Assembly: GCA_964429815.1 (NCBI GenBank)
Contig: CAYSCM010000004.1
Span: 1 to 24,071 of the forward strand
Source: an uncultured Candidatus Saccharibacteria bacterium
GTDB lineage: Bacteria > Patescibacteriota > Minisyncoccia > Phycocordibacterales > CAYSCM01
DNA length: 24,071 nucleotides
Direction of reading: 5' to 3'
In this document: piece by piece, positions 1,225 to 20,141 of the stretch
Position numbering within the stretch: the stretch's first letter is position 1
Layout of the letters: the number at the start of each line of letters is the position of its first letter
Translations under genes and position numbers: made by a program
The notes under the pieces: model-generated
The model's database searches: none
Told to the model about the DNA's origin: nothing
The model's input: only the letters and a program-made list of their open reading frames with translations

Positions 1225-1254
1225 ATGAAAAATTACTCTACCACGAGCAGGAGT

Positions 1255-1979: not shown

Positions 1980-2008
1980 ACTGTACCAGAGGAAATGCTG
2001 CTCTGCAA
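1980..2008 (-). promoter_or_regulatory. candidate sigma70-type promoter for rpsB-tsf (-35 TTGCAG at 2003-2008, 17-nt spacer, -10 TACAGT at 1980-1985). The TSS would fall about 2 nt before the ATG (leaderless-like)
   Basis: Read directly from the minus strand: TTGCAGAGCAGCATTTCCTCTGGTACAGTGTGTCCTCATG. No Shine-Dalgarno is present. Confidence 0.3.
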
Positions 2009-2735: not shown

Positions 2736-2764
2736 ATTATACTCTTAAAATAAGAATAAGTCAA
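2736..2764 (-). promoter_or_regulatory. consensus sigma70 promoter (-35 TTGACT at 2759-2764, 17-nt spacer, -10 TATAAT at 2736-2741) driving the 2064-2681 gene
   Basis: Minus strand reads TTGACTTATTCTTATTTTAAGAGTATAATTTTCC. The -35 abuts/overlaps the 42-bp palindrome. Confidence 0.7.
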
Positions 2765-4124: not shown

Positions 4125-4168
4125 AGCGATGAGACGATAGCAGGAAAATCGGGATTTGTAAAGAAAGG

Positions 4169-5103: not shown

Positions 5104-6489
5104 TCAATTCCTTGCCAAGACATCGATTTGGCTTTGGAAGTTGCTCGCGAGCTCCATCACTTCGTTGCCGTAAAAGGCGTACGCGGACTTCCCTGCGTTA
5201 GCCCACCCCGCAAGGTAGCGAAGTGCCGCGAGACGCTCCGCTTGTGGTGTTCCCGCAGAGGCTCCGTTATCCGAGAGAAGTGCCGCGGCTGCCATAAACG
5301 CATCCTCGTTGTCCCAGGGATTACTAGCCCCGCTGCCGCCGGTTAATTTTCTGATGCGATCACGACCCGCGTCATAAGCCCAGGGGCCGACCCACGTCTT
5401 ATTTGGATTGGGGCCGCACACGCCGGTCGTCGTATTGTAAAAACCGCCGAAACACGCCCAGGTGGAGGGGATAAACTGCGCCGGGCCCATGGCTCCGCCC
5501 CAGCCGTACCACGCACGCTTAGAAACCGGCATCTGATTTGGATCAAGGCCAAGCTGCGCCGTTATGGCGAGGAAGAGCGGCTTATCGCGGGTCGGGTTCA
5601 TATCGACGCTCCAGCTTCCCGTGCCGATGTTCTCGCCGAGATTGGTCTCTTCCGCCAAGACGCCCAGGAGAAACGCGGGGCGGACGCCGGTCTTCTGGTA
5701 GGCGAGATTCGCGAGGTCGAGCGCTTTGCCGAAGGGTATCGCCGCCGAATCGCGCAGCGTAAAGAGCTCGGAGCGTATTTGGGCGGCGCTTTTTTGGCTG
5801 CTTGTGAGAAGCGCTTGGTAGGCCGCCTCCTGACCTTTGGTTTGCGAGAGTATTTGCTTGCGCTCCTGCTCTTGCGCGACGATTTTCTGCTGTTCGAGCA
5901 CTTGGATCTGACGCAATTCCAGTTGCTCGGCTTTTTTATCCTCGAGCGCGGCTTTCTGGGTCTCGGTGAGATTCTTCGTGTCAGCGATATCCGAAAAAGA
6001 GGTATGGAGCGCTCCCTTGATGGAGTCGAAGCGGTCTATGTCGGTGAAAATATCGGAGAGCGTCCCGCTTCCCAAGAGAAGCTCCGCGAGTGAGTAGTCG
6101 TCTATCTGGCTTTGCTGCCGCACGAGCTGCGCGAGAGACTCTTTTTCGCGCCCGAGCTTATCGTTGAGACCGCCTATCGTCGCCTGCTTGCTTTCGATAT
6201 CGCCCTGAAGCTCTTCGATCGTAAGGTCGCGTGCTTTGATGGCGAGTTTTGCAGAGTCTATTTTGGCATCGAGAATGGCGACGTCGCGCTCGAGCGAAAC
6301 GCGCTCCTGCGATTTTGCGTCGAGAAGTTTTTGCTGATCGGCTATCTGCCCCTCAAGCTGCGCGAGCTGCTGCTCGAGCTGTGCGCGACGATTCTGTACA
6401 TCCACGCTTCCCGTTTCCTGCGCGAAGAGATGCGGCGGGAGGGCGAGAGCGCCCGCGAGCACCGCCACAGCAAGGAGCCGCTTGTGCAT
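5104..6489 (-). CDS. secreted lytic murein transglycosylase (MltB/SLT family 3-like C-terminal domain) with a long N-terminal coiled-coil region. Likely start is the ATG at 6487-6489 (MHKRLLAVAVLAGALA...); the track used a GTG two codons upstream
   Basis: Signal peptide, then about 250 aa rich in Q/E/L/K heptad-like repeats. C-terminal motifs AWYGWGGAMGPAQFIPSTW and YAFYGNE are typical of MltB-like transglycosylases. A TATACT box lies 7 nt upstream of the ATG. Confidence 0.75.
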   Translation of the reverse strand: MHKRLLAVAVLAGALALPPHLFAQETGSVDVQNRRAQLEQQLAQLEGQIADQQKLLDAKSQERVSLERDVAILDAKIDSAKLAIKARDLTIEELQGDIESKQATIGGLNDKLGREKESLAQLVRQQSQIDDYSLAELLLGSGTLSDIFTDIDRFDSIKGALHTSFSDIADTKNLTETQKAALEDKKAEQLELRQIQVLEQQKIVAQEQERKQILSQTKGQEAAYQALLTSSQKSAAQIRSELFTLRDSAAIPFGKALDLANLAYQKTGVRPAFLLGVLAEETNLGENIGTGSWSVDMNPTRDKPLFLAITAQLGLDPNQMPVSKRAWYGWGGAMGPAQFIPSTWACFGGFYNTTTGVCGPNPNKTWVGPWAYDAGRDRIRKLTGGSGASNPWDNEDAFMAAAALLSDNGASAGTPQAERLAALRYLAGWANAGKSAYAFYGNEVMELASNFQSQIDVLARN

Positions 6490-6537
6490 GTCCACAAGTA
6501 TAGCAGACGTGCTCGCGGGCTTTCGCTTCCCGTGCGC

Positions 6538-6563
6538 AAAAATCCGCCTTTCGGCGGATTTTT
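6538..6563 (-). terminator. rho-independent terminator of rplY (AAAAATCCGCC-tttc-GGCGGATTTTT), overlapping the TAA stop
   Basis: Perfect 11-bp inverted repeat with a TTTC loop and flanking A/T runs. Could act in both directions. Confidence 0.8.
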
Positions 6564-7233
6564 ATTTCTTCTGTTCTTTTGTCGGAGCTTCGGCGGCAGC
6601 TCCCTCTTCTCCTTCTTTGACTTCTTTTCCTTTTTTCTCCACTTCGATGGCAGATAGGTCAATGGGCTGCGGCTCCTCCTCCACTTCCTCTTTCACCTCG
6701 GCGGCAAGCACCACGACGTCGTCAGGATTACCGACGGCCTCGACACCCGCGGGAAGTTTAAGGTCTTTGATGTGGATTTTCGCGTCAAAGGTCGCGAGTG
6801 CAGAGATGTCGACCTCGATAACGTGCGGGAGATTTTGCGGCAGAGCGGAGATCTCAAGCTCATGGAGCACTTTCACAAGCGTGCCACCGAGGTCTTTCAC
6901 CGCACCGGCAACGCCCACGAACTCAAGCGGCACTTTGACCTCGAGCTTCTTTCCCTTCTCGATGACATAAAAATCGGCGTGCCTCGGCTCTCCCGTAAGG
7001 GTATCGAACTGCACGTCGTAAATGAGGGCGTCCTTGCTATCGCCGATGCCGGAGAGTGTGATGATGGTGGACTCACCCGCGCTTTTAAGCACCTTCTTGA
7101 AATCGCGGCGATTGACCGCGATCGGTGTCGAAGCATCCTGGTGACCATAGAAAACGGCCGGCATATCGCCTCCCGTGAGGGCGTTCGCCTTTTTGCCAAG
7201 CTCAGTGCGGGTTTTGACCTTTAGCTCAACCAT
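6562..7233 (-). CDS. rplY: 50S ribosomal protein L25 / general stress protein Ctc form with an acidic-lysine-rich C-terminal tail. Likely start is the ATG at 7231-7233 (MVELKVKTRTELGK...); the track start is a TTG at 7260
   Basis: L25/Ctc N-terminal domain (ELKVKTRTELGKKANALTGGDMPAVFYG) and beta-barrel C-domain. A TATACT box lies 8 nt upstream of ATG 7233. Confidence 0.88.
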   Translation of the reverse strand: MVELKVKTRTELGKKANALTGGDMPAVFYGHQDASTPIAVNRRDFKKVLKSAGESTIITLSGIGDSKDALIYDVQFDTLTGEPRHADFYVIEKGKKLEVKVPLEFVGVAGAVKDLGGTLVKVLHELEISALPQNLPHVIEVDISALATFDAKIHIKDLKLPAGVEAVGNPDDVVVLAAEVKEEVEEEPQPIDLSAIEVEKKGKEVKEGEEGAAAEAPTKEQKK

Positions 7234-7277
7234 GGGCTCGTAGTATACCCTGGAGGACAAAAAAGTCTAGGGTTCTT

Positions 7278-8144
7278 CTAGAGGCCGTTGAAGAGTTTGA
7301 GGCGCTCGGAGACGACTTTGGAGACGGCCTGGACTGCACCCTTCATAAATTTATAGGGAGCTATCTCTTCCGGGTCCTCAGAGAGTGAAAGTTGGATGCC
7401 TTTGCGGTATGCGATGCGGATTTCGGTGTTGATATGAACGACGGAAATGCCAGCCCTAATTGAAGCGACGAAGTCTTCGTTGCTCGTGCCGGAGCCGCCA
7501 TGGAGCACGAGCGGCACGCCTGCGGCGTCGCGTATCTCTTTAACGCGCTTGATGTTGAGCGCAGGTTCTTTCCCTGACTTAAGCATCCCGTGGAGATTCC
7601 CCACCGCGGGAGCAAGAAGATCAATGCCAGTTTCTTTGACGAACCGCGCAGCTTCCTCCGGCTTGGTGAGCGTCTCTTCGGTTATCTGCGCGCCTTCTGG
7701 TATGGCGTCGAGCAGTTTACTACTCGTGCCGATGAAGCCCAACTCCCCTTCAATGAGCATGCCAGGGCGATTTTTTCTTGCGTACTCAACGACCCTTCTG
7801 GTCATCGCGACGTTGCCGTCGAAGCTTTCTTTCGTGCCGTCGATGATTACGGCGTCGTAACCCGCATCAATGGCCTCAAAGGAGCGCTCTGCCGAGTAGG
7901 TATGGTCGGCATTTATGAAAATGGGGTAGTCGTGCTCCTCCCGCAGGCTCCGTACCATCGCGACGGCCTGCCGCGCCCCTATGAAGTCGCGCTCACCCTC
8001 GGAGGTGCCGACGATGACCGGGAGCTTAAGAGAGCGTGCGGCGTTAAAGATGGCGCAAAGCTGCTCGGAGTCGGAGATGTTGAAATGCCCCACCGCTATC
8101 TTATTTTTTTCGGCGTCCGCGATGAGCGTGCGCAAATCTTTCAT
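7278..8144 (-). CDS. fba: fructose-1,6-bisphosphate aldolase, class II
   Basis: Class II FBA motifs (VGHFNISDSEQL, PVIVGTSEG, HGGSGTSNEDF, LHGMLKSG). An extended -10 (TGTTATACT) sits 7 nt upstream of the ATG. Confidence 0.93.
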   Translation of the reverse strand: MKDLRTLIADAEKNKIAVGHFNISDSEQLCAIFNAARSLKLPVIVGTSEGERDFIGARQAVAMVRSLREEHDYPIFINADHTYSAERSFEAIDAGYDAVIIDGTKESFDGNVAMTRRVVEYARKNRPGMLIEGELGFIGTSSKLLDAIPEGAQITEETLTKPEEAARFVKETGIDLLAPAVGNLHGMLKSGKEPALNIKRVKEIRDAAGVPLVLHGGSGTSNEDFVASIRAGISVVHINTEIRIAYRKGIQLSLSEDPEEIAPYKFMKGAVQAVSKVVSERLKLFNGL

Positions 8145-8168
8145 GAGATTCAGTATAACAAGACTAAA

Positions 8169-8192
8169 ACCCGTTCGCTTCGGCGAACGGGT
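8169..8192. other. hairpin 1 (10-bp stem ACCCGTTCGC/GCGAACGGGT, UUCG loop), followed on the minus strand by TTTTAG and then the fba extended -10
   Basis: Perfect inverted repeat read directly from the sequence. Confidence 0.6.
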
Positions 8193-8234
8193 TCGTCCGA
8201 GCGCCAGAGGTGCTGTAGGGAAAAATGACCTCCA

Positions 8235-8254
8235 CCCCGCACTAGCGTGCGGGG
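8235..8254. other. hairpin 2 (8-bp stem CCCCGCAC/GTGCGGGG, loop TAGC)
   Basis: Perfect inverted repeat read directly from the sequence. Confidence 0.55.
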
Positions 8255-8267
8255 TTTCCCGCTAAAG

Positions 8268-8297
8268 GAAAAACCGCCGACCGTTCGGTCGGCGGTT
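8268..8297 (-). terminator. hairpin 3 plus T tract: rho-independent terminator of the 8307-8612 gene (AACCGCCGACC-gttc-GGTCGGCGGTT then TTTTCCTTT on the minus strand)
   Basis: 11-bp perfect stem followed by TTTTTCCTTT on the minus strand, 10 nt after the stop codon. Confidence 0.75.
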
Positions 8298-8306
8298 CCT
8301 CAAACC

Positions 8307-8612
8307 CTAGTCGAGTTCAAGGACTTTCTCGCGTCGGAGCCGCTTTTCCTCGCCGGTGATACTGAGACCGGCAAAACCATCGACGGGCTTCACCGCTAGG
8401 AGCCTGTCACGCTCGAGTACGAACACGTTCGTCCCAAGCGGCCACAGCAAGGGCTCCCCGGCACTCTCGAGACAAGGAAGCTTCTCGCCCGTCGCGCTCG
8501 AAAGTTTGAGGGGCTCGCACCGGCCTTCGCCAAGATAGCGCCAGAATTGTGGGTGCCAGTTGGCGATGGTCATGACGATGCTTCCGGCCAACACTTCCCG
8601 TAGCTCTCTCAT
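8307..8612 (-). CDS. hypothetical small protein (about 101 aa), own strong SD
   Basis: ORF with GGGAGGGA 4-5 nt upstream of the ATG at 8610-8612 (the track's TTG at 8615 is one codon upstream). No family recognised. Confidence 0.6.
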   Translation of the reverse strand: MRELREVLAGSIVMTIANWHPQFWRYLGEGRCEPLKLSSATGEKLPCLESAGEPLLWPLGTNVFVLERDRLLAVKPVDGFAGLSITGEEKRLRREKVLELD

Positions 8613-8707
8613 CAATCCCTCCCAGGTATGAGGAAACTCTTGTGAAGGGTAGCAAAATCGCCTGGTGGGGACAAGCAGCTATGCGAGCTGCTATATACTT
8701 ATCTGAA

Positions 8708-9697
8708 ATGAGCAAGGTCGATTTTCTCTCCATCGGCGACATCACCACCGACGCATTCATTCGCATCAAGGACGCCTCGGTGCACTGCGACCTCAACCGA
8801 GAAAACTGCGAGCTCTGCCTTCGCTTCGGCGATAAAGTCCCCTACGAGGAGGTATACGTCGTTCCCGCCGTCGGCAACTCACCTAACGCCGCTGTCTCTG
8901 CCTCGCGACTCGGCCTTTCCTCTGGGCTCGTTACCAACATCGGCGACGACCAAAATGGCAAGGACTGCATGGCCCAGCTCCATAAGGATAGCGTCGACAC
9001 GTCTCTTGTCGCCGTTCACCCCGGGATGAAGACGAACTATCACTACGTACTGTGGTATGAAGAAGAGCGCACCATCCTCGTAAAGCACCAAGCGTATCCT
9101 TACATGCTTCCAAACCTTGGCTCTCCGAAATGGCTGTACGTGAGCTCGCTTGGTGGCAATTCTCTTGCGTACCAGCGTGAGATAGCGGCGTACGTCAAAG
9201 AGCACCCGGGCATTTCGCTCGCATTTCAACCTGGCACCTTCCAAATACAGGCCGGCTACGAAGCTCTGAAAGAGGTGTACGAGGTTTCAAAAATCTTTTT
9301 CTGCAACAAGGAGGAAGCGTGTCGCATACTTTCCGCCCAATCGAATGACATTAAGGAGCTACTCGAAGGAGTGCGGCGCTTAGGCCCCTCGGTGGTGTGC
9401 ATTACCGATGGCCCGAACGGCGCGTATGCCTACGACGGAGAGCAGTTTCTCTTTACGCCAATGTTCCCTGATCCGAAGCCGCCGCTCAATCGCACCGGCG
9501 CGGGAGACGCATTCGCCTCTACTTTTACAGTCGCCCTTGCCTTGGGCGAGCCTTTGGAAAAGGCTTTAGCCTGGGGGCCCGTGAATTCCGCCTACGTCGT
9601 CCAGGGCATCGGCGCGCAGGCAGGCCTCCTCACGCGAGCTGAGCTTGAAAAGCATCTCGCCGAAGCTCCGGAGGGTTACAAGGTAAAAAAAATATAG
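8708..9697 (+). CDS. PfkB-family carbohydrate/nucleoside kinase (ribokinase/adenosine kinase-like). Likely start is the ATG at 8708 (MSKVDFLSIGDITTD...); the track ORF begins at 8642
   Basis: N-terminal GD box (LSIGDITTDAF) and C-terminal PfkB signature (NRTGAGDAFASTF). A TATACT box at 8694-8699 lies 8 nt upstream of ATG 8708. Confidence 0.85.
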   Translation: MSKVDFLSIGDITTDAFIRIKDASVHCDLNRENCELCLRFGDKVPYEEVYVVPAVGNSPNAAVSASRLGLSSGLVTNIGDDQNGKDCMAQLHKDSVDTSLVAVHPGMKTNYHYVLWYEEERTILVKHQAYPYMLPNLGSPKWLYVSSLGGNSLAYQREIAAYVKEHPGISLAFQPGTFQIQAGYEALKEVYEVSKIFFCNKEEACRILSAQSNDIKELLEGVRRLGPSVVCITDGPNGAYAYDGEQFLFTPMFPDPKPPLNRTGAGDAFASTFTVALALGEPLEKALAWGPVNSAYVVQGIGAQAGLLTRAELEKHLAEAPEGYKVKKI

Positions 9698-9712
9698 GCA
9701 CCTATCGGTGCC
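9696..9712. terminator. bidirectional hairpin terminator (AGGCACC-tatc-GGTGCCT), T8 tract on the minus-strand side and TTAT on the plus side
   Basis: 7-bp stem immediately after the kinase TAG stop. The minus-strand read gives GGCACCGATAGGTGCCTATATTTTTTTT. Confidence 0.55.
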
Positions 9713-9727
9713 TTATAACGTAAGAAC

Positions 9728-10030
9728 TTACCTGCTTTTCTTTTTTCGCCTTCGAGGCTTCGTCTGTCGCAATTCGTGAAATTTGCGCTCAAAGTCTCCA
9801 TGCACGCTCGCGAAACCGGGCGAGCGCAACTGGAGGCTTTCAAATATCATTCTCCACGGAAATTGTTGCTGCAGACGATGCCTGTAGGGATTTTTCTTCG
9901 CTGCGATTTCTATAACGCGATAGCAGTAGCGAATATCTTTCCAGTACCGCCTTGATTTGGCTAAACCCGAAGGGGTTTTAAAACAGCGTTTTTGGGCTTC
10001 AGTGCGCAAATCATAAAGTGTCTGGCACAT
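9728..10030 (-). CDS. hypothetical very basic 100-aa protein (C-terminal RRRKKKSR tail). Uncertain; could instead be a noncoding transcript
   Basis: ORF bracketed by two terminators. AGGAG lies 8 nt upstream of the ATG at 10028-10030. Lower GC than its flanks and no homology recognisable. Confidence 0.35.
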   Translation of the reverse strand: MCQTLYDLRTEAQKRCFKTPSGLAKSRRYWKDIRYCYRVIEIAAKKNPYRHRLQQQFPWRMIFESLQLRSPGFASVHGDFERKFHELRQTKPRRRKKKSR

Positions 10031-10082
10031 GGCACAGTCTCCTCTTCCGGTAGCATTCTAAATAGACGGTGGAAAAAGAAAA

Positions 10083-10106
10083 GCCCGAAGTCGTACGACT
10101 TCGGGC
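10083..10106 (-). terminator. rho-independent terminator of the cell-wall hydrolase gene (perfect 24-nt palindrome GCCCGAAGTCGTACGACTTCGGGC then TTTTCTTTTT on the minus strand)
   Basis: Perfect palindrome with a strong T tract on the minus strand and TTAGGGTTTT on the plus strand. Confidence 0.8.
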
Positions 10107-10124
10107 TTAGGGTTTTGCTCGCGC

Positions 10125-10997
10125 TCACTTTTCGTTCGCGCGAGCGAGGAATTTCTGGTATTCCGCGGATTGCCGGACGAGTTTCATCGACGGCGGCCGC
10201 AGGGTGCCGGTTGAAGCTGAGGGCGGCACTGTTTTCTTTTCCGGAGTCGTCGAGAGAGGCTTCGCCGCAGGCTTCTTTGCCTGTACACCCCCCTTTGGGT
10301 CGCAGTAGAACGTGTGCGGCCCGATCTCGCTCTGTCTGGTGAGCTTTTCGAAGAAAGCTCTCCCTGCAGACGTGGTACCCACGTCGTCCGTGCGCTTGTA
10401 GTAGCGCGCGCAGGACAGACTCCCCGTCAGGAGGACGGCGTATTTTCCGGCAAGCACATCGCGAGCGATGCGCTCGCTGTCCGCCCACAACCACGCCGGA
10501 ATAGTCCATCGATTGAGGAACATTCCGGTGAATTGCCCTTGCTGCCAGACGACCCCGCAGATGGAATCTGCAAAGCCGGCCCTGGAACCGTCCATTTTCC
10601 GCTGGCGGGCAATTTCTCCGACGGATGCGCGAACATACGGCGGGTCGCGGAAGTTGCTCTCCCGCGAAATGAGCTCCGTCATGCAGGACAGGTCGTCCTG
10701 TTTGATGAAGGTTTCGGCTTTGTCCGGCACGACGACCGTGTCGGCTGCCATCACGACCCAGAGAGCGATGATGACCCCGACGCCGAGAACATTGAAGAGC
10801 TCCCGACGCAGGACATAGGAGAAGACGGGTGTAAACACGAACCGCACGAAGCTGCTCGCGAGCACCGTCACTCCCCAACCCAACCAGAATAGAAAGAACT
10901 CGATGAAGAGGACCACCGCATGGGCGGCCACTTCGTAGGCACCGACGGCGTACCCTGCGGCACGCTGAAGATGCCTCTTCGACCCACGCTTTCGCAT
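10125..10997 (-). CDS. membrane-anchored cell wall hydrolase, SleB/CwlJ (Hydrolase_2) family. True start is probably the internal ATG (MRKRGSKRHL...) preceded by GAGGAGG; the track's TTG start at 11054 lies inside the promoter -35. Start coordinate is +/-1
   Basis: One TM helix, then the motif SNFRDPPYVRASVGEIARQRKMDGSRAGFADSICGVVWQQGQFTGMF, which matches the Hydrolase_2 signature (...NRV...FP.TIC.VV.Q..QFS). Confidence 0.7.
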   Translation of the reverse strand: MRKRGSKRHLQRAAGYAVGAYEVAAHAVVLFIEFFLFWLGWGVTVLASSFVRFVFTPVFSYVLRRELFNVLGVGVIIALWVVMAADTVVVPDKAETFIKQDDLSCMTELISRESNFRDPPYVRASVGEIARQRKMDGSRAGFADSICGVVWQQGQFTGMFLNRWTIPAWLWADSERIARDVLAGKYAVLLTGSLSCARYYKRTDDVGTTSAGRAFFEKLTRQSEIGPHTFYCDPKGGVQAKKPAAKPLSTTPEKKTVPPSASTGTLRPPSMKLVRQSAEYQKFLARANEK

Positions 10998-10999
10998 GG

Positions 11000-11054
11000 A
11001 AGCCTCCTCAGGTTTTCGGGGGTAATTATATAACACAAAAAGCCATCTTGTCAA
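11000..11054 (-). promoter_or_regulatory. near-consensus sigma70 promoter for the hydrolase gene (TTGACA - 18 nt - TATAAT, then about 25-nt leader with GAGGAGG)
   Basis: Minus strand reads TTGACAAGATGGCTTTTTGTGTTATATAATTACCCCCGAAAACCTGAGGAGGCTTCCATG. Confidence 0.6.
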
Positions 11055-11074
11055 TCGTACAAAACGGCTTGGTC

Positions 11075-11302
11075 TCAGGATATTTTTCGAAACCGCGGGT
11101 GAAAAGTCCCGTCCGGGCTCTTAGCCTCGCCGAGAAACTCCTCAAGCGGCCGTATCCAAATCTTGCTTACCGGATTTTCATAAAGCGCCTCGTAGACGAC
11201 GAACTCTTTGAGGTCGTCTGCGTGCTTCCCCACCCCGATGAGCCGGTAGCGTCCGCCGGTTTTGACATGTTCGTATAGCTCTCCGGGTATGAGGGGCATC
11301 AT
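11075..11302 (-). CDS. DUF1653-family small protein. Start is the ATGATG at 11297-11302, overlapping the stop of the upstream micro-ORF
   Basis: Matches the DUF1653 pattern (GELYEHVKTGGRYRLIGVGKHADDLKEFVVYEALYENPVSKIWIRPLEEFL...PRF). The longer track ORF (start 11353) begins in the overlapping micro-ORF. Confidence 0.75.
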   Translation of the reverse strand: MMPLIPGELYEHVKTGGRYRLIGVGKHADDLKEFVVYEALYENPVSKIWIRPLEEFLGEAKSPDGTFHPRFRKIS

Positions 11303-11457
11303 TGTGAAAGCTCGTAGGTAAGCGTATCGACAGAGGTCCGTACCGCGCTCCATGAGGATTGCTGGGCAATGAGCGCCTTCCCTGAGAAATACAGTATGCC
11401 GACAAGCACTGAAACGAGAAGGAGCGTGCCGAGGCCGGAATTGACGTTGTGACGCAT
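11298..11457 (-). CDS. unannotated 52-aa single-TM micro-protein (MRHNVNSGLGTLLLVSVLVGILYFSGKALIAQQSSWSAVRTSVDTLTYELSQ), paralog of the adjacent peptide
   Basis: Found by manual translation (below the track's 60-aa cutoff). The ATG lies 3 nt after the stop of peptide 1, and its TGA overlaps the DUF1653 ATG (CAATGATG). It shares VGILYF..K.L.AQ..S.S....VD..L..L.S with peptide 1, with identical length. Confidence 0.55.
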
Positions 11458-11460
11458 ACG

Positions 11461-11619
11461 CTAATGAGAAAGTTTCTGGAGCATCGAATCGACGATAGAT
11501 GCCATGCGGCTAAATGATTCATCCTGCGCCCAGAGTTTATCGGAGACAAAATATAGGATACCGACAAAAACCGCCATCAGGAAGAGAAATATGAATAGCG
11601 GCGCGTGGTCGTGGTCCAT
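11461..11619 (-). CDS. unannotated 52-aa single-TM micro-protein (MDHDHAPLFIFLFLMAVFVGILYFVSDKLWAQDESFSRMASIVDSMLQKLSH)
   Basis: ATG at 11617-11619 overlaps the TAA stop of the transketolase C-terminal gene (TAATG). About 38% identical, ungapped, to the downstream 52-aa peptide. Confidence 0.55.
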   Translation of the reverse strand: MDHDHAPLFIFLFLMAVFVGILYFVSDKLWAQDESFSRMASIVDSMLQKLSH

Positions 11620-12608
11620 TATGGTTTTCGCTCACGTACCTTTTTTATTGCGGCTACGATGTGCGAGATGCCCATGCCGTAATGCTCGATAAGCTCCCTT
11701 GGTGTGCCGGACTGACCGAATCGGTCGCGGACCCCGATAAATTCAATGGGCACCGGAGTGTGCTGTGCGAGCAGTTCAGCGACCGCGCTTCCCATGCCGC
11801 CCGCGATCTGGTGCTCTTCGACGGTCACGACTGCGCCGGCTTCTTCCGCGACAGCACGAAGGAGTTCCCTGTCGAGGGGTTTTATCGTATGAAGGTTAAG
11901 AACGCTTGCTGAAATTTCCCCGTCGAGCTCCCTGGCGGCCATGAGCGCATTGTAGAGGAGCGGCCCTGAAGCGACGACGGCGACCTCCGGCTTCTTCCCT
12001 TTCCATACAAGCGAGGCTCTCCCGATCTCAAACGGGGATTCTTTCGTCGTCATGACGGGCGTTTTCTCGCGGGCAAAGCGCAGGTAGACCGGCCCGGGGT
12101 GCGCGGCTGCAGCGAGAGTCGCCTTCCTTCCCTCCTCTGCGTCGGCAGGGTAGATGACGGTCATGTTTGGCTGGACGCGCATGAGCGCGAGGTCCTCGAG
12201 CGCCTGGTGCGTCGCGCCGTCCGGGCCAACCGAGACGCCCGCGTGCATGCCGCCGATCTTCACGGGAACATTGTTGAGCGAGATGGTGGTGCGTATCTGC
12301 TCGTTGTTGCGTCCGGGAGAAAAGGTCGCGTAGGAGGTGATGAAGGGGATTTTACCGTAATTGGCGAGACCCGAGGCGATCGTCGCGAGGTTTTGCTCGG
12401 CGACGCCTATTTCGATGTAGCGTTTCGGGTACTTCTTTTGAAACTCAAGGGTGCGGGTCGACTCGACCAGGTCCGCGCACAGCGCCACCACACGCTCATC
12501 CTTCTCGGCCGCCTCGAGGAGACCCCTGCCGAAACCCTCCCGCGTCGCGGCCTGCTCGACGTCTTGGTCGAAGAGCTTTGGATTAAGTTTGGCGTCTCTG
12601 ATCATCAT
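11619..12608 (-). CDS. transketolase, C-terminal subunit (pyrimidine-binding and C-terminal domains) of a split transketolase
   Basis: Tkt Pyr domain motifs (IASGLANYGKIPFITSYATFSPGR, GVSVGPDGATHQALEDLALMR). Its start lies 1 nt after the tkt-N stop. Confidence 0.93.
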   Translation of the reverse strand: MMIRDAKLNPKLFDQDVEQAATREGFGRGLLEAAEKDERVVALCADLVESTRTLEFQKKYPKRYIEIGVAEQNLATIASGLANYGKIPFITSYATFSPGRNNEQIRTTISLNNVPVKIGGMHAGVSVGPDGATHQALEDLALMRVQPNMTVIYPADAEEGRKATLAAAAHPGPVYLRFAREKTPVMTTKESPFEIGRASLVWKGKKPEVAVVASGPLLYNALMAARELDGEISASVLNLHTIKPLDRELLRAVAEEAGAVVTVEEHQIAGGMGSAVAELLAQHTPVPIEFIGVRDRFGQSGTPRELIEHYGMGISHIVAAIKKVRERKP

Positions 12609-12609
12609 G

Positions 12610-13467
12610 TCATTGGTGCTCGCTTGTGAGTTTGCCGTTCAAGGTCCGAATGGCATCAATGAAGCGCTTCCCTTCCTCCGGCTTCGGGGGTTTTCCATGC
12701 CATTCGTAATTGAATTCGATCTCGGCCACACCCTTTCCGGGGATGGTGTGCGCGATGATGACGGTCGGCTTTTCATAAATAGCCTTCGCCTCTTCGGTAG
12801 CATCGACAAAGGCGCGTATATTGTGCCCGTCGATCTCAAGAACGTGCCAATTGAACGCTCGGTATTTGTCTGCGAGCGGCTCAAGCGGCATGACGTTCTC
12901 GGTCATGCCATCGATCTGGATATTGTTGCGGTCGATGACGGCCGTGAGGTTGTGAAGCTTGTTGTTGCCGGCGAACATGGCGCCCTCCCAGGTGTTGCCC
13001 GCATCGTGCTCGCCGTCGCTTAGAAGACAGTAGACGCGGAATTTCTCTCCGTCCATGCGCGCTCCGTAGGCGTAGCCGGCGGCTTGAGAGAGCCCGGAGC
13101 CCAAGGGCCCCGAGGTCGTCTCGATCGCCGGAAACCGCATGCGCTCGGGGTGTCCCTGGAGGCGCGAGCCGAATTTCCGGAGCGTCATGGCCTCATCGAG
13201 GGAGAGGTAGCCGGCGTGCGCCATGGTGGCGTAGCGTATCGGCGTTATGTGGCCGTTGCTTAATATGAGCCGGTCGCGCTCCGGCCAGTCGGGACGCTTC
13301 GGGTCGTGGTTGAGGATGTGGAAATAGAGAGCGGTGAATATGTCCGCCATACCCAAGGGCCCCGCGGTGTGGCCAGAACCGGACGCGACGAGCATGGAAA
13401 TGAGCGTCTCGCGGATCTCATTGGCCTTTTTTTGTAGCTCCTGTGCTTTTTCTTCGGTGATGGACAT
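12610..13467 (-). CDS. transketolase, N-terminal (TPP-binding) subunit
   Basis: TPP-binding motifs (SGHTAGPLGMADIFTALY, LLSDGEHDAGNTWEGAMFAG, GHPE). ATG lies 1 nt after the rpe TAG stop. Confidence 0.93.
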   Translation of the reverse strand: MSITEEKAQELQKKANEIRETLISMLVASGSGHTAGPLGMADIFTALYFHILNHDPKRPDWPERDRLILSNGHITPIRYATMAHAGYLSLDEAMTLRKFGSRLQGHPERMRFPAIETTSGPLGSGLSQAAGYAYGARMDGEKFRVYCLLSDGEHDAGNTWEGAMFAGNNKLHNLTAVIDRNNIQIDGMTENVMPLEPLADKYRAFNWHVLEIDGHNIRAFVDATEEAKAIYEKPTVIIAHTIPGKGVAEIEFNYEWHGKPPKPEEGKRFIDAIRTLNGKLTSEHQ

Positions 13468-13468
13468 G

Positions 13469-14116
13469 CTAAGCCGCCGTGAGGGTCGTTATCGCGTGCG
13501 CGATATCGGGGTCTTCAAAAATGTAACTGCCGGACACGAGGCGATTCGCGCCGGCCTCGACAAGGCGGTGCGCCGTTTTTGCATTCACCGCCCCGTCAAC
13601 GCTTATTGTAGCTTCCGGATGTGTCGCTCTCCAAGCGGCGACTTTTCGGAGTACGCGCTCGTCGAACGGCTCTCCTTGGTAGCCGATATGGGCGATGCCC
13701 ATGAATTGCACAACATCGATGAGCGGGAGGTACGGCTCGAGCGTGGCGCTTTCGGTATCGTTGAGGATAGCAAGCCCGAGCTCAAGCTTCGGGTAGGTAG
13801 CCCGCACGTACGCAAGGGTATTTTTAAGCTCTCTGGTCCTCTCGATGTGAAAGATGAGGCGCCGTGCGCCCGCCGCTATCCAATCGTGCGCTGCCCTCCC
13901 AGGATCGGCGACCATGAGGTCGACCTCGAATGGCATGTCAAGCGCGATGGCAGGAAAATCCCCATGAGCGCCCCGAAAGGGCCAGCTCTTCGGGGCGACG
14001 TAGAGCCCGTCCATGATATCGAGCTGGACGAAGCTAACGTAGCGCCTGACGCGCGCGATTTTCTCGCGAAGATCCGCGAGGCTCTTGGGCATGATGGCGG
14101 GAACAACTTCCGCCAT
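13469..14116 (-). CDS. rpe: ribulose-phosphate 3-epimerase. Likely start is the ATG at 14114-16 (MAEVVPAIMPKS...), 2 nt after the pilin stop; the track start at 14146 would overlap the pilin gene by 28 nt
   Basis: RPE motifs (VQLDIMDGLYVAP, DLMVADP, HIERT, VQFMGIAHIGYQGEPF, ISVDGAVN). Confidence 0.9.
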   Translation of the reverse strand: MAEVVPAIMPKSLADLREKIARVRRYVSFVQLDIMDGLYVAPKSWPFRGAHGDFPAIALDMPFEVDLMVADPGRAAHDWIAAGARRLIFHIERTRELKNTLAYVRATYPKLELGLAILNDTESATLEPYLPLIDVVQFMGIAHIGYQGEPFDERVLRKVAAWRATHPEATISVDGAVNAKTAHRLVEAGANRLVSGSYIFEDPDIAHAITTLTAA

Positions 14117-14118
14117 GG

Positions 14119-14658
14119 CTACCAACAGTTTGGATAACTTGACCACGCCGCCGGGAAGGCCGTATCCGCCCCGACCCTACAGATGGTGGAAGCTGACCCT
14201 ATCGGGGTAAAAACTTCAAACTGTATCTTGATGCCGTAGCCTTTTACGTTGCCGTTGGAGTCGAGCTCGTAGGCGTACTGGTAGTCGGCCTGACCTGGCT
14301 GGCACGTGCCTGCTGTACATAGCGGGTCGTGCGGCGCGGCGGCCGACGTGTAGTAGGTGGATAAACCTGCACCCGAGCAGGTAACGAGGTTCGAAAGGGT
14401 ATCCGGCGCGAGAGAACCCTTAAGCGACGAGCACGAGACGTTCCGTATGGTCGGGTAGGCATGGTTTGCCGTGAAGTAGTCTTCAAGCGCATTTTGCACC
14501 GAGTGTATCTCTTGGGCACGTCTCGCGTCCCTCGCCTTCTGACGAGATGACGCGAGCGACGTGAGCACGATGCTCCCCAGGAGCCCAATGATGGCGACGA
14601 CCACTAAAAGCTCTATAAGGGTGAACCCTCTGCCTGCGACAAGACGAGGAAACGTCAT
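14119..14658 (-). CDS. type IV pilin/pseudopilin-like protein (class III prepilin signal)
   Basis: N-terminus MTFPRLVAGRG|FTLIELLVVVAIIGLLGSIVL: a G/F cleavage-methylation motif plus a hydrophobic helix with E5. Cys-containing C-terminal domain. Confidence 0.85.
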   Translation of the reverse strand: MTFPRLVAGRGFTLIELLVVVAIIGLLGSIVLTSLASSRQKARDARRAQEIHSVQNALEDYFTANHAYPTIRNVSCSSLKGSLAPDTLSNLVTCSGAGLSTYYTSAAAPHDPLCTAGTCQPGQADYQYAYELDSNGNVKGYGIKIQFEVFTPIGSASTICRVGADTAFPAAWSSYPNCW

Positions 14659-14660
14659 AC

Positions 14661-14849
14661 TCAGCCCCAGAGGGTGTACGCGGTCGCAAGGAGCACGAGG
14701 ATGAGGACGACGATAAGGACCGTCTGCGCTCCCTTCGCGTCCTTGGCAAGACCAAGTTTAATGACGAGCTTGCTTACCCAGCCCAACCGCTCACCCGATT
14801 GCGCCATGCGGTGGCGGAAATCGTTCTCTTCGTAAAATTCTACGGCCAT
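14661..14849 (-). CDS. small membrane protein (62 aa, C-terminal TM helix) encoded between rpiB and the pilin
   Basis: Its TGA stop is 2 nt before the pilin ATG. C-terminal VLIVVLILVLLATAYTLWG is a clear TM segment. Confidence 0.5.
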   Translation of the reverse strand: MAVEFYEENDFRHRMAQSGERLGWVSKLVIKLGLAKDAKGAQTVLIVVLILVLLATAYTLWG

Positions 14850-14878
14850 ATTTCTATTGTATGCCCTCTGAGAAGCCC

Positions 14879-15364
14879 TCAGGAGAGGTTTTCCCCATCC
14901 AGCTTTTCGATGCGACGCAGGTGCCGCGCGTCGCCGGAGAAGCTGTGCTCAAGCCAGAGCCGCAACGCCCTCTTGGCTTCGCTTTCCGTAAGGAAGCGCG
15001 CCCCGAGCGCGAGCACGTTGGCGTCATTATGCTCGCGGGACGACTCTATCATAGAGAGAGCTCTTCCGGACGCATCCGTCTGCTGAGCGCCGGTGTCTGC
15101 GTAAAAAACCGCGGCTCGCACTCCCCGGAGGCGGTTGGCCGCCATGGCCTCCCCCTGCCCTGAGCCGCCGATGATGACCCCGCGAGAGTCGGGGGTGCTC
15201 GAAACGGAGCGGGCCACCTTGAACGCATAGTCAGGGTAGTCATCGCCCAGCACCTTCTCGAACGGCCCCTCGTCATGGACGCTAAACCCTAGGCCTTCGA
15301 CGAAGGAGATGAGCTCCTGCTTGAGGTCGAACCCGGCGTGATCGGAACCGAAGAACACCTTCAT
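14879..15364 (-). CDS. rpiB: ribose-5-phosphate isomerase B (RpiB/LacAB family). True start is the ATG at 15362-64 (MKVFFGSDHAGFDLK...), 1 nt after the gap stop; the longer track ORF is an artefact
   Basis: RpiB signature (GSDHAGFDLK, GVIIGGSGQGEAMAANR, with a Cys-less active-site variant). Confidence 0.9.
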   Translation of the reverse strand: MKVFFGSDHAGFDLKQELISFVEGLGFSVHDEGPFEKVLGDDYPDYAFKVARSVSSTPDSRGVIIGGSGQGEAMAANRLRGVRAAVFYADTGAQQTDASGRALSMIESSREHNDANVLALGARFLTESEAKRALRLWLEHSFSGDARHLRRIEKLDGENLS

Positions 15365-15365
15365 G

Positions 15366-16397
15366 TTAGGGAAGATGTGAGCCGGTCTCAAGGACGTGCA
15401 TGAGCAGGGTATGGGTGTATCCCATTTCGTTGTCGTACCAGGCGAGGACTTTGACAAGATTCCCTCCGACGACCCGGGTGAATGAAAGGTCGGCAAGCGA
15501 GGCGAACGGGCTTCCGACAATGTCAGAGGAGACGATGGGTTCCTCGGTGGTCGCAAAAATACCCTGCCAACGCTTCTCCGCCGCCGCGTCGCGAAGTATC
15601 TGGTTCACTTCTTGTGCTGAAGTATCCCGTTTCGCGACGAACGTTACGTCGACGAGAGAGCCGCAGGGCACCGGCACGCGTATCGCGATGCCGTCGAATT
15701 TTCCAGAGAGCCCCGTGAGCGCTTTGGTGGTCGCTATCGCCGCACCCGTCGAGGAGGGTGTGATGTTTGCCGCTCCCGCTCTGCCGCGCCGCAGGTCGCC
15801 CTTGGCAGGGCTGTCGACGATCGACTGGGTCGCTGTATACGCGTGGACGGTGTTGAGAAGAGCCTTTTCGATACCGAGCGTCTCGTCGAGAACGGCCATA
15901 AGCGGGCTTCCGGCGTTGGTGGTGCAGGAGGCGTTGCTCGTGATATCGCAGGTTTTGAGCTTGTCGGCGTTTATGCCCATGAGGACCGTGGCGGCGGAAA
16001 TTCCCGCCGGTGCATCGTCCTTGACCGGCGCGGAAATGACGACGCGCTTGGCCCCCGCCGTGAGGTGCAGCGCGGATTTTTCGAAGCTGTCGAAAACGCC
16101 GGTCGATTCGACGACGACGTCGACGCTCATTTCGCTCCAGGGAAGCTTTGCCGGATCTTTCTCGGAAAGGTAGCTTATCTCCTTGCCGTCGATGAGCAGC
16201 GCGCCGTTTTTCACCTCGATGGGAAAGGCGCTCTTTCCGTACACGCTGTCGTAGCGCAGGAGGTAGGCCGCATTATGGATATCGCCGAGGTCGTTTATGG
16301 CGACCAGTTCCATCTCCTTTTTCTCGCGGGAGAGTTTTACGAACGCCCTACCGATGCGGCCGAATCCATTGACCGCGACGCGTACTTTTTTTGCCAT
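15366..16397 (-). CDS. gap: glyceraldehyde-3-phosphate dehydrogenase (type I)
   Basis: NAD-binding VAVNGFGRIGR and catalytic ASCTTN motifs. A TATACT box lies 6 nt upstream of the ATG. Confidence 0.95.
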   Translation of the reverse strand: MAKKVRVAVNGFGRIGRAFVKLSREKKEMELVAINDLGDIHNAAYLLRYDSVYGKSAFPIEVKNGALLIDGKEISYLSEKDPAKLPWSEMSVDVVVESTGVFDSFEKSALHLTAGAKRVVISAPVKDDAPAGISAATVLMGINADKLKTCDITSNASCTTNAGSPLMAVLDETLGIEKALLNTVHAYTATQSIVDSPAKGDLRRGRAGAANITPSSTGAAIATTKALTGLSGKFDGIAIRVPVPCGSLVDVTFVAKRDTSAQEVNQILRDAAAEKRWQGIFATTEEPIVSSDIVGSPFASLADLSFTRVVGGNLVKVLAWYDNEMGYTHTLLMHVLETGSHLP

Positions 16398-16579
16398 GCA
16401 TTAAGTATACCTCTCTGCCGAAAGACTTTTGTGCACAGCGGAATGTCCAGAGGGTCGTCGGCGCTAGCACCCAACCGAAAAATATTCTGCCGCCGAGCAG
16501 TCCCGCAGGGGCGAACAAGGCGATGAAGCTGAGAGTAGGCTAAACGCTGCGAGCGCTGCGCGCAGGGATATGTTCTTGC

Positions 16580-17812
16580 TCATGACGACTTTTGCTTGGC
16601 GAGACACTCTTCTTTGTACGATGACGGGAGTTCATCGCAGAGGTTGAGAGCCTCGGGGGAGCCGGGATGGAAATTGTACGTCGAGTACGTTATGAGCTCC
16701 TGGTAGCACGTTTCCCCCACTCCCGCCGCCGCCGCGACGGAGCAGAGCGCGACGGAGCGGCCGATGTTGCGCCAGTCGGTCTCGATGAAGCGGGATGCAG
16801 AATTCGCGTAGCACTGCCCTTTCTGTGCGGCGGGAAGTCCTCCGCAGAGCGCTGCGATTCGCTCGGCATCGAAATTGAGCATTGCCGCATTGACGTAAAA
16901 AATGCCGTTGAAGCAGCGACTATATTCTGCCTTGTCGCCGGAAAGCGGTTTACAGAAATCCAGGAGGCCGGAGGGCGTTTGAACGGCAAGGCGGTAGAGC
17001 GGCCAGCTCTCCGTGATGCAGGAAGCATGCTCCTGTCCCGAAAAACGGCTGCAGAAACTCTCGCGCGTCTTGAGCGTCACTTCTTTGCCGCGAATGAGGT
17101 CGAAATCTTCCGGCTCGAGCGGCTGGTAGATCTGCATGAACGCGCCGTCATAGCAGAGGTGCCGAAAATCTCTGCCATCGGAGGAGAGCGCCACGCTACC
17201 GCACAGCGCGAGCGAGCGGTTTATGTTGGCGCTCGTTATGTACATCGTAAGGTGGCCAAGTGCGTGCTCGCAGGTCGCCCGCTCCATTGATGTGGGGTGC
17301 CAATCGGCGGTCGGCTCGCACGCACCGCGAAGCATCGGTTCGAGTTCAGTTATCTTCGCCTCGGGCATGGCATCGGTACGAAAACGCTCCTGGAATGCTC
17401 CGTGAATGCCCCCGTTGCTGCAGATGCCCGAGGGAACGCGATGCACGACCTCGAGCCACTTGCTCGGGTCTTTTGCCGTTTCTTTTTCTGCAAGCTCGTG
17501 ACCCAACACATGACAATACACGAAAGAAGGATCTTCCCGCTGTACGAGCGCACTTACGGCAAAGGCATCCTCCATGGAGAGTCCCTGATCCATGAGCTTC
17601 GGTATTTCCTTGTTGTAGCAGGTCGGGTGGTCCGACGCGGAAGCGCACAACTTCACGACCGCGTCTGCCTTCGACACAAGCACAGAAGATTGCTCAAGGC
17701 CGTAATACCAAAGTGCCGCACCTACAGCGACGACGAGGATGCCGAGCAGGAGTTCGCGACGGCGCGTTTTGGGAAGCGCTAGCGTAGTGCGCATGGCATC
17801 AGTGTAGCGCAT
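16580..17812 (-). CDS. Cys/His-rich membrane-anchored protein, paralog A of a three-gene tandem family (unknown function)
   Basis: N-terminal TM anchor, about 20 Cys, and two copies of a C-x-H-x-x-G-H module (YCHVLGHELAEKE; CEHALGHLTMY...C...C). Its start overlaps the stop of paralog B (TTGATG). The track's TTG start is at 17815. Confidence 0.7.
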   Translation of the reverse strand: MRYTDAMRTTLALPKTRRRELLLGILVVAVGAALWYYGLEQSSVLVSKADAVVKLCASASDHPTCYNKEIPKLMDQGLSMEDAFAVSALVQREDPSFVYCHVLGHELAEKETAKDPSKWLEVVHRVPSGICSNGGIHGAFQERFRTDAMPEAKITELEPMLRGACEPTADWHPTSMERATCEHALGHLTMYITSANINRSLALCGSVALSSDGRDFRHLCYDGAFMQIYQPLEPEDFDLIRGKEVTLKTRESFCSRFSGQEHASCITESWPLYRLAVQTPSGLLDFCKPLSGDKAEYSRCFNGIFYVNAAMLNFDAERIAALCGGLPAAQKGQCYANSASRFIETDWRNIGRSVALCSVAAAAGVGETCYQELITYSTYNFHPGSPEALNLCDELPSSYKEECLAKQKSS

Positions 17813-18858: not shown

Positions 18859-18859
18859 G

Positions 18860-20071
18860 CTATCTCATACTAAAGAGCGCCGCGCTGCAGGAGCGCCGGT
18901 CGTCTCCTTGAAGCGTGCCGCAGATGCGGTCGCGCTTCTTATCGGCAGGAATCAGGAAGTAGGTGGCCGCCTGAAAAAGCTCGCCCGTGCACACGTCGTG
19001 GATAGCCCCCGCTGGTATGCCGGCACAAAAGAGCGCCGCCCCTTTGGGGTCGTTCTCGCCGCCCCAGAAGAGCGACTCGACGACTTGCCGCACGCACCCA
19101 CCCGTCGCCTCATTGGTCTTGCCGAGCGCGCACCAACTATAGACAAGAGCGAGCTTCTCCGGGGGTATCTGGTCGATGACGCGAATATCCCGCGCCATGG
19201 CGAGCGTCGGCAACTCTTTGCCGATGCCGCCGAAGCAGGAGGAGCGGTTTTGGATTTCTTGCGCCGGAATGCTGCTGCAGTAGGAGAACGCCTGGGTGAA
19301 TTCCCTGCCGCCGGGATGGAACAAACTTCCTCCGTTCATTTCAAAAAAGTGCGGGGTGAGGTACACGTAGCACATCGGCTTTACTTCCTCCGGCATGTAG
19401 CTCCGGTCGCACGGCGCAAGCGGGTCGGTCGCGGAGAGATATTTCATGCGCTCCACGGCCCAGAGCGCCTTGTCGTGGTCCCCGCCGCCCGTGAGCTCCA
19501 TGATGGTCCCCGAGACGCACTGCTTGTACTCCTCGTTGAAGCGCTCCGGTGTTCCTACTTTTTTACACAGCGCTATCGCTTTTTTCTCGTCATAGGAGAC
19601 GGAGGCAAGCACGCCGTGCCCGAGCCCGTGGAAGCACATGCCGTATGCTCCGGGGCCTCCGGGCGCCTGCTGGCAAGCCTGCGCGATGAGCGGGAGCGCC
19701 GCTTCCCCATTGTCATAAAAAGCACCGACCACGATGGCGTGTGAGCAGGCATTGCGAAATTCCTGCGTGCATATTTTGATACCGTCCACTCCTTGTTGCT
19801 TGTACAAAACGTCCCCGACGACGTGACCAAGGAGATGCAGGTCCGTGTCTGGCGGGAGAGCGGCTCGTCGCAGTATCTCGTAGGCGTACGGGGCCCCCTT
19901 CGCCTGCGCCAGTTTCGTGAAGTAGTCCTGGAGAGTGTGGAAAGAACCTTTGAAGTGCGAAAGGCTCTTGACTTCGGGGTACGCGAATACCGGAAGCGCC
20001 TTGGTGACGAGAATCGCGCCCGCGACCAGAAGGATTCCGAGGAGCATAGTGAGCCTTGAGGAGCGGTTCAT
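18860..20071 (-). CDS. Cys/His-rich membrane-anchored protein, paralog C. Start is probably the ATG at 20069-71 (MNRSSRLTMLLGILLVAGAILV...); the track start at 20263 would overlap the divergent plus-strand gene
   Basis: TM anchor plus modules LHLLGHVVGDVLY...C...C and CFHGLGHGVLASVSY...C...C. Confidence 0.7.
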   Translation of the reverse strand: MNRSSRLTMLLGILLVAGAILVTKALPVFAYPEVKSLSHFKGSFHTLQDYFTKLAQAKGAPYAYEILRRAALPPDTDLHLLGHVVGDVLYKQQGVDGIKICTQEFRNACSHAIVVGAFYDNGEAALPLIAQACQQAPGGPGAYGMCFHGLGHGVLASVSYDEKKAIALCKKVGTPERFNEEYKQCVSGTIMELTGGGDHDKALWAVERMKYLSATDPLAPCDRSYMPEEVKPMCYVYLTPHFFEMNGGSLFHPGGREFTQAFSYCSSIPAQEIQNRSSCFGGIGKELPTLAMARDIRVIDQIPPEKLALVYSWCALGKTNEATGGCVRQVVESLFWGGENDPKGAALFCAGIPAGAIHDVCTGELFQAATYFLIPADKKRDRICGTLQGDDRRSCSAALFSMR

Positions 20072-20141
20072 GCGCCTATTGTAGCGGAAATAGTGCTGGA
20101 ATTCCCTGGACAAAGGTGCGGCGGCGGGAGAATATCTTGTC

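Follow-up and report, generated by a model that had tools for sequence, protein, structure and literature searches.

TATACT boxes 6-8 nt before ATG start codons point to leaderless mRNAs in a Candidatus Saccharibacteria contig

The window analysed here is the whole stretch of 24,071 bp (57.2% GC) at positions 1 to 24,071 of contig CAYSCM010000004.1 (assembly GCA_964429815.1) from an uncultured Candidatus Saccharibacteria bacterium, and the element in question is the hexamer TATACT, which stands 6-8 nt before the ATG of five of its genes: a lytic transglycosylase (LT), rplY, fba, a PfkB-family kinase (pfkB) and gap. These hexamers are very probably sigma-70-type -10 elements placed so that the mRNAs are leaderless, the start being reckoned from the usual distance between a -10 element and the transcription start site (TSS). 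The promoters would often take the extended form TGnTAnnnT with little or no -35 element, and RNA polymerase would initiate on the A of the ATG or 1-3 nt earlier. The mRNAs of LT, rplY, fba, pfkB and gap would then lack a leader, those of rpsB, rpmE and a 403-aa open reading frame (ORF) probably too, and that of tsf nearly so; translation would begin from a 5'-terminal AUG without pairing between Shine-Dalgarno (SD) and anti-SD sequences, a mode of ribosome recruitment that we infer. Three types of gene start would coexist: first genes of transcription units, mainly housekeeping genes of the core, are leaderless; operon-internal genes follow stop to start and are presumably translationally coupled; and a few accessory genes combine a consensus promoter with a short leader and a strong SD. 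The evidence lies in the position of the boxes, their statistics, their promoter-like anatomy, their dependence on gene context and their conservation.

Translation table 11 was used for the ORFs of the window, and the spacer is the number of nucleotides between the hexamer and the start codon. Pfam families in the window identify tsf, rpsB, a release-factor gene, rpmE, the SLT-like LT, rplY (L25/Ctc), a class-II fba, the PfkB kinase, a Hydrolase_2 cell-wall hydrolase, a DUF1653 gene, rpe, a type-IV pilin, rpiB, gap, a beta-lactamase-like gene and a 926-aa Peptidase_S74/Ig-like protein, and several ORFs are without a family.

An earlier note on this DNA had reported TATACT 6-8 nt before five ATGs, and every coordinate it gave was exact. 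On the reverse strand, LT (5104-6489) has the extended -10 element TGcTATACT at 6497..6505 (hexamer 6497-6502) with a spacer of 7 to the ATG at 6487-6489; rplY (6562-7233) has the promoter TAGACT-16-TATACT at 7242..7269 (hexamer 7242-7247) with a spacer of 8 to the ATG at 7231-7233; fba (7278-8144) has the extended -10 element TGtTATACT at 8152..8160 (hexamer 8152-8157) with a spacer of 7 to the ATG at 8142-8144; and gap (15366-16397) has TATACT at 16404..16409 with a spacer of 6 to the ATG at 16395-16397. On the forward strand, pfkB (8708-9697), which is divergent from orf102, has TATACT at 8694..8699 with a spacer of 8 to the ATG at 8708-8710.

TATACT occurs nine times on both strands against 2.09 expected, a count reached by 0/100 dinucleotide shuffles. 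The window holds 63 ATGs opening at least 200 codons, and the probability that at least 5 of 9 random hexamers fall at spacer 6-8 before such an ATG is P ~1.2e-10. As for the remaining copies, that at 3990-3995 codes F-Y-T of the L31 CHPFYTG motif, that at 2738-2743 (+) is a mirror overlap with the opposite-strand TATAAT of the orf205 promoter, and those at 20466 and 23763 are intragenic with no ATG near. The claim that none of the five genes has an SD held for LT, rplY, fba and pfkB, before whose ATGs there is no match of at least 4 nt to the anti-SD complement at 3-14 nt; it did not hold for gap, where GAGGT overlaps the 5' edge of the box 11 nt from the ATG and would fall outside a leaderless transcript.

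The pattern was followed in two sets of relatives. The first comprises 78 Paceibacteria/Parcubacteria loci (L001-L078) of the Candidate Phyla Radiation (CPR; Patescibacteria), taken from a gap-protein scan with one genome per species, in which the best match had 67% amino acid identity and 2 Bacteroidota appeared besides these 78 loci. These matches place the window in the Paceibacteria; exact look-ups of its gap protein in the contig collection and of a 47-mer from its end in metagenome contigs gave no match. The second comprises 80 independent metagenome contigs (L081-L160; 833 kb) retrieved with the LT protein. Together the 158 loci are syntenic neighbourhoods around two marker genes, gap and LT, not whole genomes. 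As a control, 200 kb of E. coli K-12 (L161-L164) was run through the same pipeline, with TAnnnT as the relaxed motif.

In the 78 loci, TAnnnT at spacer 6 was found before 20.1% of 1077 starts, while the other offsets gave 3-5% and internal ATGs 1-2%. When seven strong hexamers were anchored and ATGs opening at least 100 codons were counted behind them, the first set gave 140, 68, 68 and 45 at spacers 6, 7, 8 and 9 against a background of ~15, and the second set replicated this with 72, 53, 51 and 23 against ~6. GTG and TTG starts behind the hexamers showed a faint rise at most in both sets, and all cases in the window are ATG. With the modal spacer of 6, the A of the ATG falls on the seventh base downstream of the -10 hexamer, where the sigma-70 holoenzyme canonically initiates. 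In the E. coli control the SD signal peaked at 12-14% (spacers 5-8) and 33% of genes had an SD 5-mer, but only 3.7% had TAnnnT at spacer 6-9; the pipeline is therefore able to detect SD sequences and does not itself create a -10 peak. TAnnnT is common in A+T-rich spacers, with a background of 3-7% per offset in the relatives, and the boxes might on that ground be put down to chance or to A+T-rich intergenic composition, were it not for the 0/100 shuffles, the positional P of ~1e-10, and a peak that is present in two independent sets and absent in E. coli. This explanation, whose probability is practically nil, was ruled out by the specificity of offset and context.

The boxes are conserved gene by gene. 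Counting orthologues with a box at spacer 5-9, first in set 1 and then in set 2, gave 57/72 and 10/10 for gap, 21/24 and 45/54 for rplY, 19/22 and 23/28 for fba (mostly with TGn), 32/43 and 35/41 for pfkB, 8/13 and 38/53 for LT, and 3/8 and 13/29 for tsf, while the operon-internal genes tktC (7/56 and 4/27) and rpe (13/66 and 6/22) were at background. The closest relative, metagenome contig Ga0207952_1000194 (L081), is syntenic with the window at 75-82% amino acid identity and has 50% GC. It keeps the exact TATACT before LT (spacer 6), rplY (spacer 8), pfkB (with TGg, spacer 6) and fba (with TGa, spacer 6), and such retention of the hexamer amid diverged flanks and spacers is the mark of a functional element. 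Among high-GC relatives no hexamer is commoner than TATACT (8/33), which is thus a local flavour of a general TAtaaT box; the pattern extends over relatives of 32% to 60% GC.

The anatomy of the motif is that of a promoter. Among starts with TAnnnT at spacer 6-9, aligned on the hexamer (n=412, 78 loci), the hexamers follow the consensus TAtaaT, most often as TATAAT or TATACT, and T stands at -3 in 52% and G at -2 in 52%. T is also raised at -23 to -21 (40/37/35% vs 29% background), whereas G is at merely 24% vs 20%; this T-rich stretch is a weak trace of a -35 element at a spacing of ~17 nt. In the window, a TGn extension precedes the boxes of fba, LT, rpsB, rpmE and tsf. The boxes of fba, LT and rpsB lie 9, 35 and 34 nt, respectively, past the end of an intrinsic terminator, so the promoter must sit in that short space. 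The terminator before fba, a 12-bp stem with a U-tract at 8167..8194 (-), is the last of three tandem hairpins and abuts the -10 region, its stem ending at 8167, 22 nt before the fba ATG. Another, bidirectional in appearance, separates the stop of rplY from the LT promoter at 6538..6563, and a further one at 2045-2020 is directly upstream of the rpsB box.

Gene context points the same way. In the relatives, a box was present before 54% of divergent genes and before 41% of genes lying 41-300 nt downstream of a same-strand gene, compared with 19% of genes at most 15 nt downstream of a same-strand gene, a value equal to that of control offsets (19%). With no enrichment before operon-internal genes, the box does not behave as a ribosome-binding signal would; occurrence before first as against internal genes is also the GeneMarkS-2 criterion dividing promoters from non-SD ribosome sites (PMC6028130). 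The relatives also contain compact divergent gene pairs with 31-43 nt between the ATGs and back-to-back outward boxes (fba/pfkB in L044, 14873-15880 in L051 and 7896-7928 in L064). Such distances leave no room for upstream promoters plus leaders, which makes these pairs, as judged from their layout, putative bidirectional leaderless promoters of a very compact kind.

These observations bear on a reading in which TATACT/TAnnnT is a non-SD translation signal on leadered mRNAs, either an A/U-rich site for the ribosome or S1 or a site of pairing with an altered 16S rRNA, comparable to that of the GeneMarkS-2 group B genomes. There was no SD enrichment before starts in the 78 related loci (SD 5-mer in 2-4% of genes, no positional peak), which fits the anti-SD loss reported for many Parcubacteria: the anti-SD motif is present in only 48% of Parcubacteria 16S rRNAs and SD helices are probably unformed, in a report that leaves leaderless mRNAs unmentioned (Tsurumaki et al., 2022; PMC9297842). 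Genes in such genomes therefore need some other initiation signal. A 16S 3' end, with the anti-SD, was found neither in the 78 loci nor in the window. Little or no SD usage is likewise shared between the Paceibacteria relatives and the Bacteroidota of group B, but the group B motif also stands before internal genes and is hence no promoter (PMC6028130), whereas the Paceibacteria motif does not. A translation signal is improbable, given that the motif is the sigma-70 -10 consensus with TGn and a weak -35 trace, that it is absent before operon-internal genes, where it would be most needed, that the boxes of fba, LT and rpsB follow terminators at a distance of 9-35 nt, and that divergent ATGs 31-43 nt apart leave no space for upstream promoters.

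A closer contender accepts the boxes as real promoters and has transcription start 1-3 nt before the ATG, or adds readthrough from upstream, so that leaders are very short or mixed. Four of the five window spacers are 7-8, those of rpmE and tsf are 9 and 10, the peak at spacer 6 in the relatives has a shoulder at 7-9, and no terminator separates fba from rplY. Such a view refines the leaderless reading more than it competes with it, and the sharp mode at 6 corresponds to the canonical seventh base; leaders of at most 5 nt are, moreover, conventionally counted as leaderless. We consider it unlikely as the better account of the boxes, although it is the most credible of the alternatives.

Several points weigh against leaderless -10 placement all the same. 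The TSS is placed by the usual -10-to-TSS distance, for this organism as for all Paceibacteria examined, and the spacers of 7-8 before fba, LT, rplY and pfkB permit a leader of 1-2 nt and not a strict 5' AUG. With no terminator between fba and rplY, a bicistronic, leadered form of rplY is also likely. The GAGGT before gap could serve as a poor SD on a longer transcript, and pfkB has neither TGn nor a recognisable -35 element. The comparative statistics rest on gene starts that were taken in the relatives from a crude first-ATG ORF caller. Finally, the fba orthologue of L081 starts with GTG behind the same box: at 6468-6484 of that contig, TGaTATACT is followed by 6 nt and a GTG aligned to the same first codon, so that a leaderless mRNA there would begin with GUG. 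As a leaderless start, GTG is weak in E. coli, yet it is accepted in mycobacteria.

The five TATACT boxes, all real, form an incomplete list, as variant boxes stand before rpsB, rpmE, tsf and the 403-aa ORF, all on the reverse strand. For rpsB (1255-1971), TGgTACAGT at 1980..1988 is a candidate with a spacer of 8 to ATG 1971. The L31 gene rpmE (3885-4124) has the promoter TTTACA-17-TGcTATCGT at 4134..4162, with a spacer of 9 to ATG 4124 and a predicted leader of ~0-2 nt; the ORF listed as a 97-aa GTG ORF is this gene, which encodes 79 aa at 3885-4124 (-) when started at ATG 4124. The box of tsf, TGgTAGAGT at 1235..1243, is borderline leaderless, with a spacer of 10 to ATG 1224 and a predicted leader of ~3 nt. 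The 403-aa ORF, a candidate gene at 18860-20071 without a Pfam match that is divergent from the beta-lactamase-like gene, has TACAAT at 20078..20083 with a spacer of 6 to ATG 20071.

Two further reverse-strand boxes are ambiguous. TAGTAT at 18867..18872, with a spacer of 8 to ATG 18858 of orf348, may be an internal promoter or chance, the same ATG being coupled to an upstream stop as TAGcATG; TACACT at 17801..17806 has a spacer of 6 to an alternative ATG (17794) of orf411, with the coupled ATG 17812 (TGATG) as the rival start. Since both genes are also stop-start coupled, neither was taken as a further leaderless gene. The release-factor gene prf (2866-3834, -) has no -10 box at the usual offset (TACTTT is at spacer 1) and no SD. 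Its start immediately follows the rpmE terminator hairpin, and a box is present in 9/14 (set 1) and 17/50 (set 2) of its orthologues.

The identity of the genes with boxes also bears on the suggestion that the hexamer belongs to an operator common to gap, fba and pfkB, through which a regulator of central carbon genes would act. Three of the five genes are indeed glycolytic or encode a sugar kinase, but boxes also precede rplY, LT, rpsB and rpmE, and in the relatives they stand before 41-54% of first genes, of any function. An operator was rejected, as nothing beyond the hexamer and TGn is common to the five upstream regions and no longer palindrome was seen; the suggestion has very little to commend it.

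Under leaderless -10 placement, the boxes settle several ambiguous start codons, as the earlier note had proposed, and in this they agree with Pfam and with the N-termini of orthologues. Pfam profiles begin 2-5 residues past the ATGs of gap, fba and rplY, with the L25 domain beginning 3 residues past the rplY ATG and Gp_dh_N at gap residue 5; the S2 profile begins at rpsB residue 18, and position 1 of the L31 profile is rpmE residue 1. For rplY, pfkB, fba and rpsB, tblastn alignments of orthologues begin near the proposed start, those of pfkB around ATG 8708 and not GTG 8642 or ATG 8681. The boxes thereby fix the starts of pfkB (8708), rplY (7233), LT (6489), rpsB (1971) and rpmE (4124), and they also delimit transcription units.

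The second class of gene start described earlier, with a leader and an SD, does coexist with the first in this sublineage, the hydrolase being SD-led in both the window and L081. Both promoters with leaders were confirmed, as TTGACA-18-TATAAT (11054-11025) and TTGACT-17-TATAAT (2764-2736). Of the strong SDs, GAGGAGG (11003-11009), GGGAGGG (8617-8623) and GAGGAG (10039-10044) stood, while before ATG 4838 of the 4179 gene there is no more than a GGAG 4-mer. All lie on the reverse strand: at 11003..11054, the hydrolase promoter and SD (GAGGAGG, 11009-11003) give a leader of ~20 nt before ATG 10997; the GGGAGGG of orf102 (8307-8612) at 8617..8623 precedes ATG 8612; orf100 has, at 10039..10060, a -10 element TAGAAT (10060-10055) and the SD GAGGAG (10044-10039) before ATG 10030, with a terminator upstream at 10108-10081; and the orf205 promoter at 2736..2764 gives a leader of ~48 nt before ATG 2681. 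Three SD 5-mers were seen before gene starts against ~0.84 expected, an estimate from 230 five-mers on both strands, 7 offsets and ~25 gene starts; the excess is marginal, but all three are 6-7-mers.

The SD-led window genes (hydrolase, orf100 and orf102), each with a promoter and a leader of ~20 nt, are all accessory, and only the hydrolase has an orthologue among the 158 loci, that of L081 (40% identity), which is also SD-led (GAGGAG). It may be, then, that SD leaders go with variable or acquired genes. Between pfkB and fba, both the window (8307-8612) and L081 (6147-6434) have a small SD-led ORF, and the two proteins are unrelated. After orf102, three near-perfect tandem hairpins at 8167-8300 (-) run into the fba promoter (minimum free energy -82 kcal/mol, z-score -6.9). 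They match no Rfam family at gathering score (best HgcC, 32 bits), the region is unconserved in L081, and they are probably stacked terminators.

Operon-internal junctions have no SD: rpe and tktN meet as TAGcATG, tktN and tktC as TGAcATG, gap and rpiB as TAAcATG, and orf348 and orf411 as TGATG. The junctions lie at 12608-12610, 13467-13469, 15364-15366, 17812-17814 and 18858-18860, nearly all with a stop, C and ATG or with TGATG, and same-strand gene gaps in the relatives peak at -4 and at +1 to +4 nt. This arrangement suggests termination-reinitiation, that is, translational coupling. The transketolase of the window is split into N- and C-terminal genes in a cluster rpe-tktN-tktC (11619-13467, -), and the split recurs in relatives, with tktN in 61 loci and tktC in 56.

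In the known cases of lambda cI (from PRM) and Tn1721 tetR, the transcript begins at the A of the AUG and translation needs a 5'-terminal AUG; in likeness to them, a clear peak behind the box is seen in the relatives for ATG alone. The E. coli cases are rare exceptions in an SD-dominated genome, whereas the architecture here appears to be the commonest one for core genes. The nearest parallel is group C of GeneMarkS-2, in which operon-first genes have a Pribnow box 6-8 nt ahead of the start codon, a ribosome-binding site (RBS) serves the others and ~25-50% of transcripts are leaderless, as confirmed by TSS mapping in M. tuberculosis and Deinococcus deserti (PMC6028130). Group C bacteria (Mycobacterium tuberculosis, Streptomyces, Corynebacterium, Deinococcus deserti) have the same box offset and dual architecture as the window, and their 25-50% leaderless transcripts compare with a box before 41-54% of first or divergent genes in the Paceibacteria relatives. 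They differ from the Paceibacteria in belonging to the Actinobacteria and Deinococcus-Thermus and in that their non-leaderless genes are RBS-led, whereas in most Paceibacteria relatives the non-leaderless genes are without an SD.

Group C genomes with genetic code 11 are almost all high-GC according to the MetaGeneMark-2 preprint (bioRxiv 10.1101/2022.07.25.500264), in contrast to a signal found at 32%-60% GC in the Paceibacteria relatives. The same preprint places low-GC Mycoplasma (code 4) in group C, with 30-60% of transcripts predicted leaderless and a -10 element beside the start (bioRxiv 10.1101/2022.07.25.500264). Mycoplasma have small, reduced, low-GC genomes and use code 4, whereas the window has 57% GC and belongs to another phylum, and, unlike code-4 Mycoplasma, these Paceibacteria read TGA as a stop (the tktN TGA is directly before the tktC ATG). 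Archaeal group D transcripts also start at the start codon, but with a TATA box ~22-26 nt upstream (PMC6028130) and not a -10 box at 6-8 nt. The pattern is thus a match to the known group C architecture and not a new mechanism; it is seen here in a lineage for which a search of the accessible literature found no such description, in that no publication linked leaderless genes to CPR, Patescibacteria, Saccharibacteria or Parcubacteria.

Elsewhere in the window, a tRNA gene is cut by the edge at 1-61 (-) (Rfam RF00005, 44 bits) and, being truncated, was not called by ARAGORN; it was the only RNA gene given by the Rfam gathering scan, and ARAGORN gave none. The 926-aa ORF at 21157-23937 (-) combines Peptidase_S74, an endosialidase/tail-fibre intramolecular chaperone, with a bacterial Ig-like domain and may be a phage-derived or surface-fibre protein.

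On balance, and judging by the neighbourhoods of two marker genes, we lean slightly towards a broader view in which core genes throughout the class Paceibacteria (32%-60% GC) are by default expressed through leaderless initiation and stop-start coupling, which would have largely replaced SD-led initiation. If true, this would explain in functional terms why the anti-SD is reported to be missing from roughly half of the Parcubacteria 16S rRNAs. In sublineages like that of the window, SD leaders would be left on variable accessory genes only, and with the Paceibacteria the group C bacteria would gain a large group of low-to-mid GC. SD-trained gene callers would then misplace many CPR start codons, which is relevant to gene calling in thousands of CPR metagenome-assembled genomes. 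A minimal promoter design of TGnTATACT, 6 nt and ATG is suggested for the emerging genetic systems of Patescibacteria. The architecture would also tie the published anti-SD loss in Parcubacteria to a concrete mechanism of initiation.

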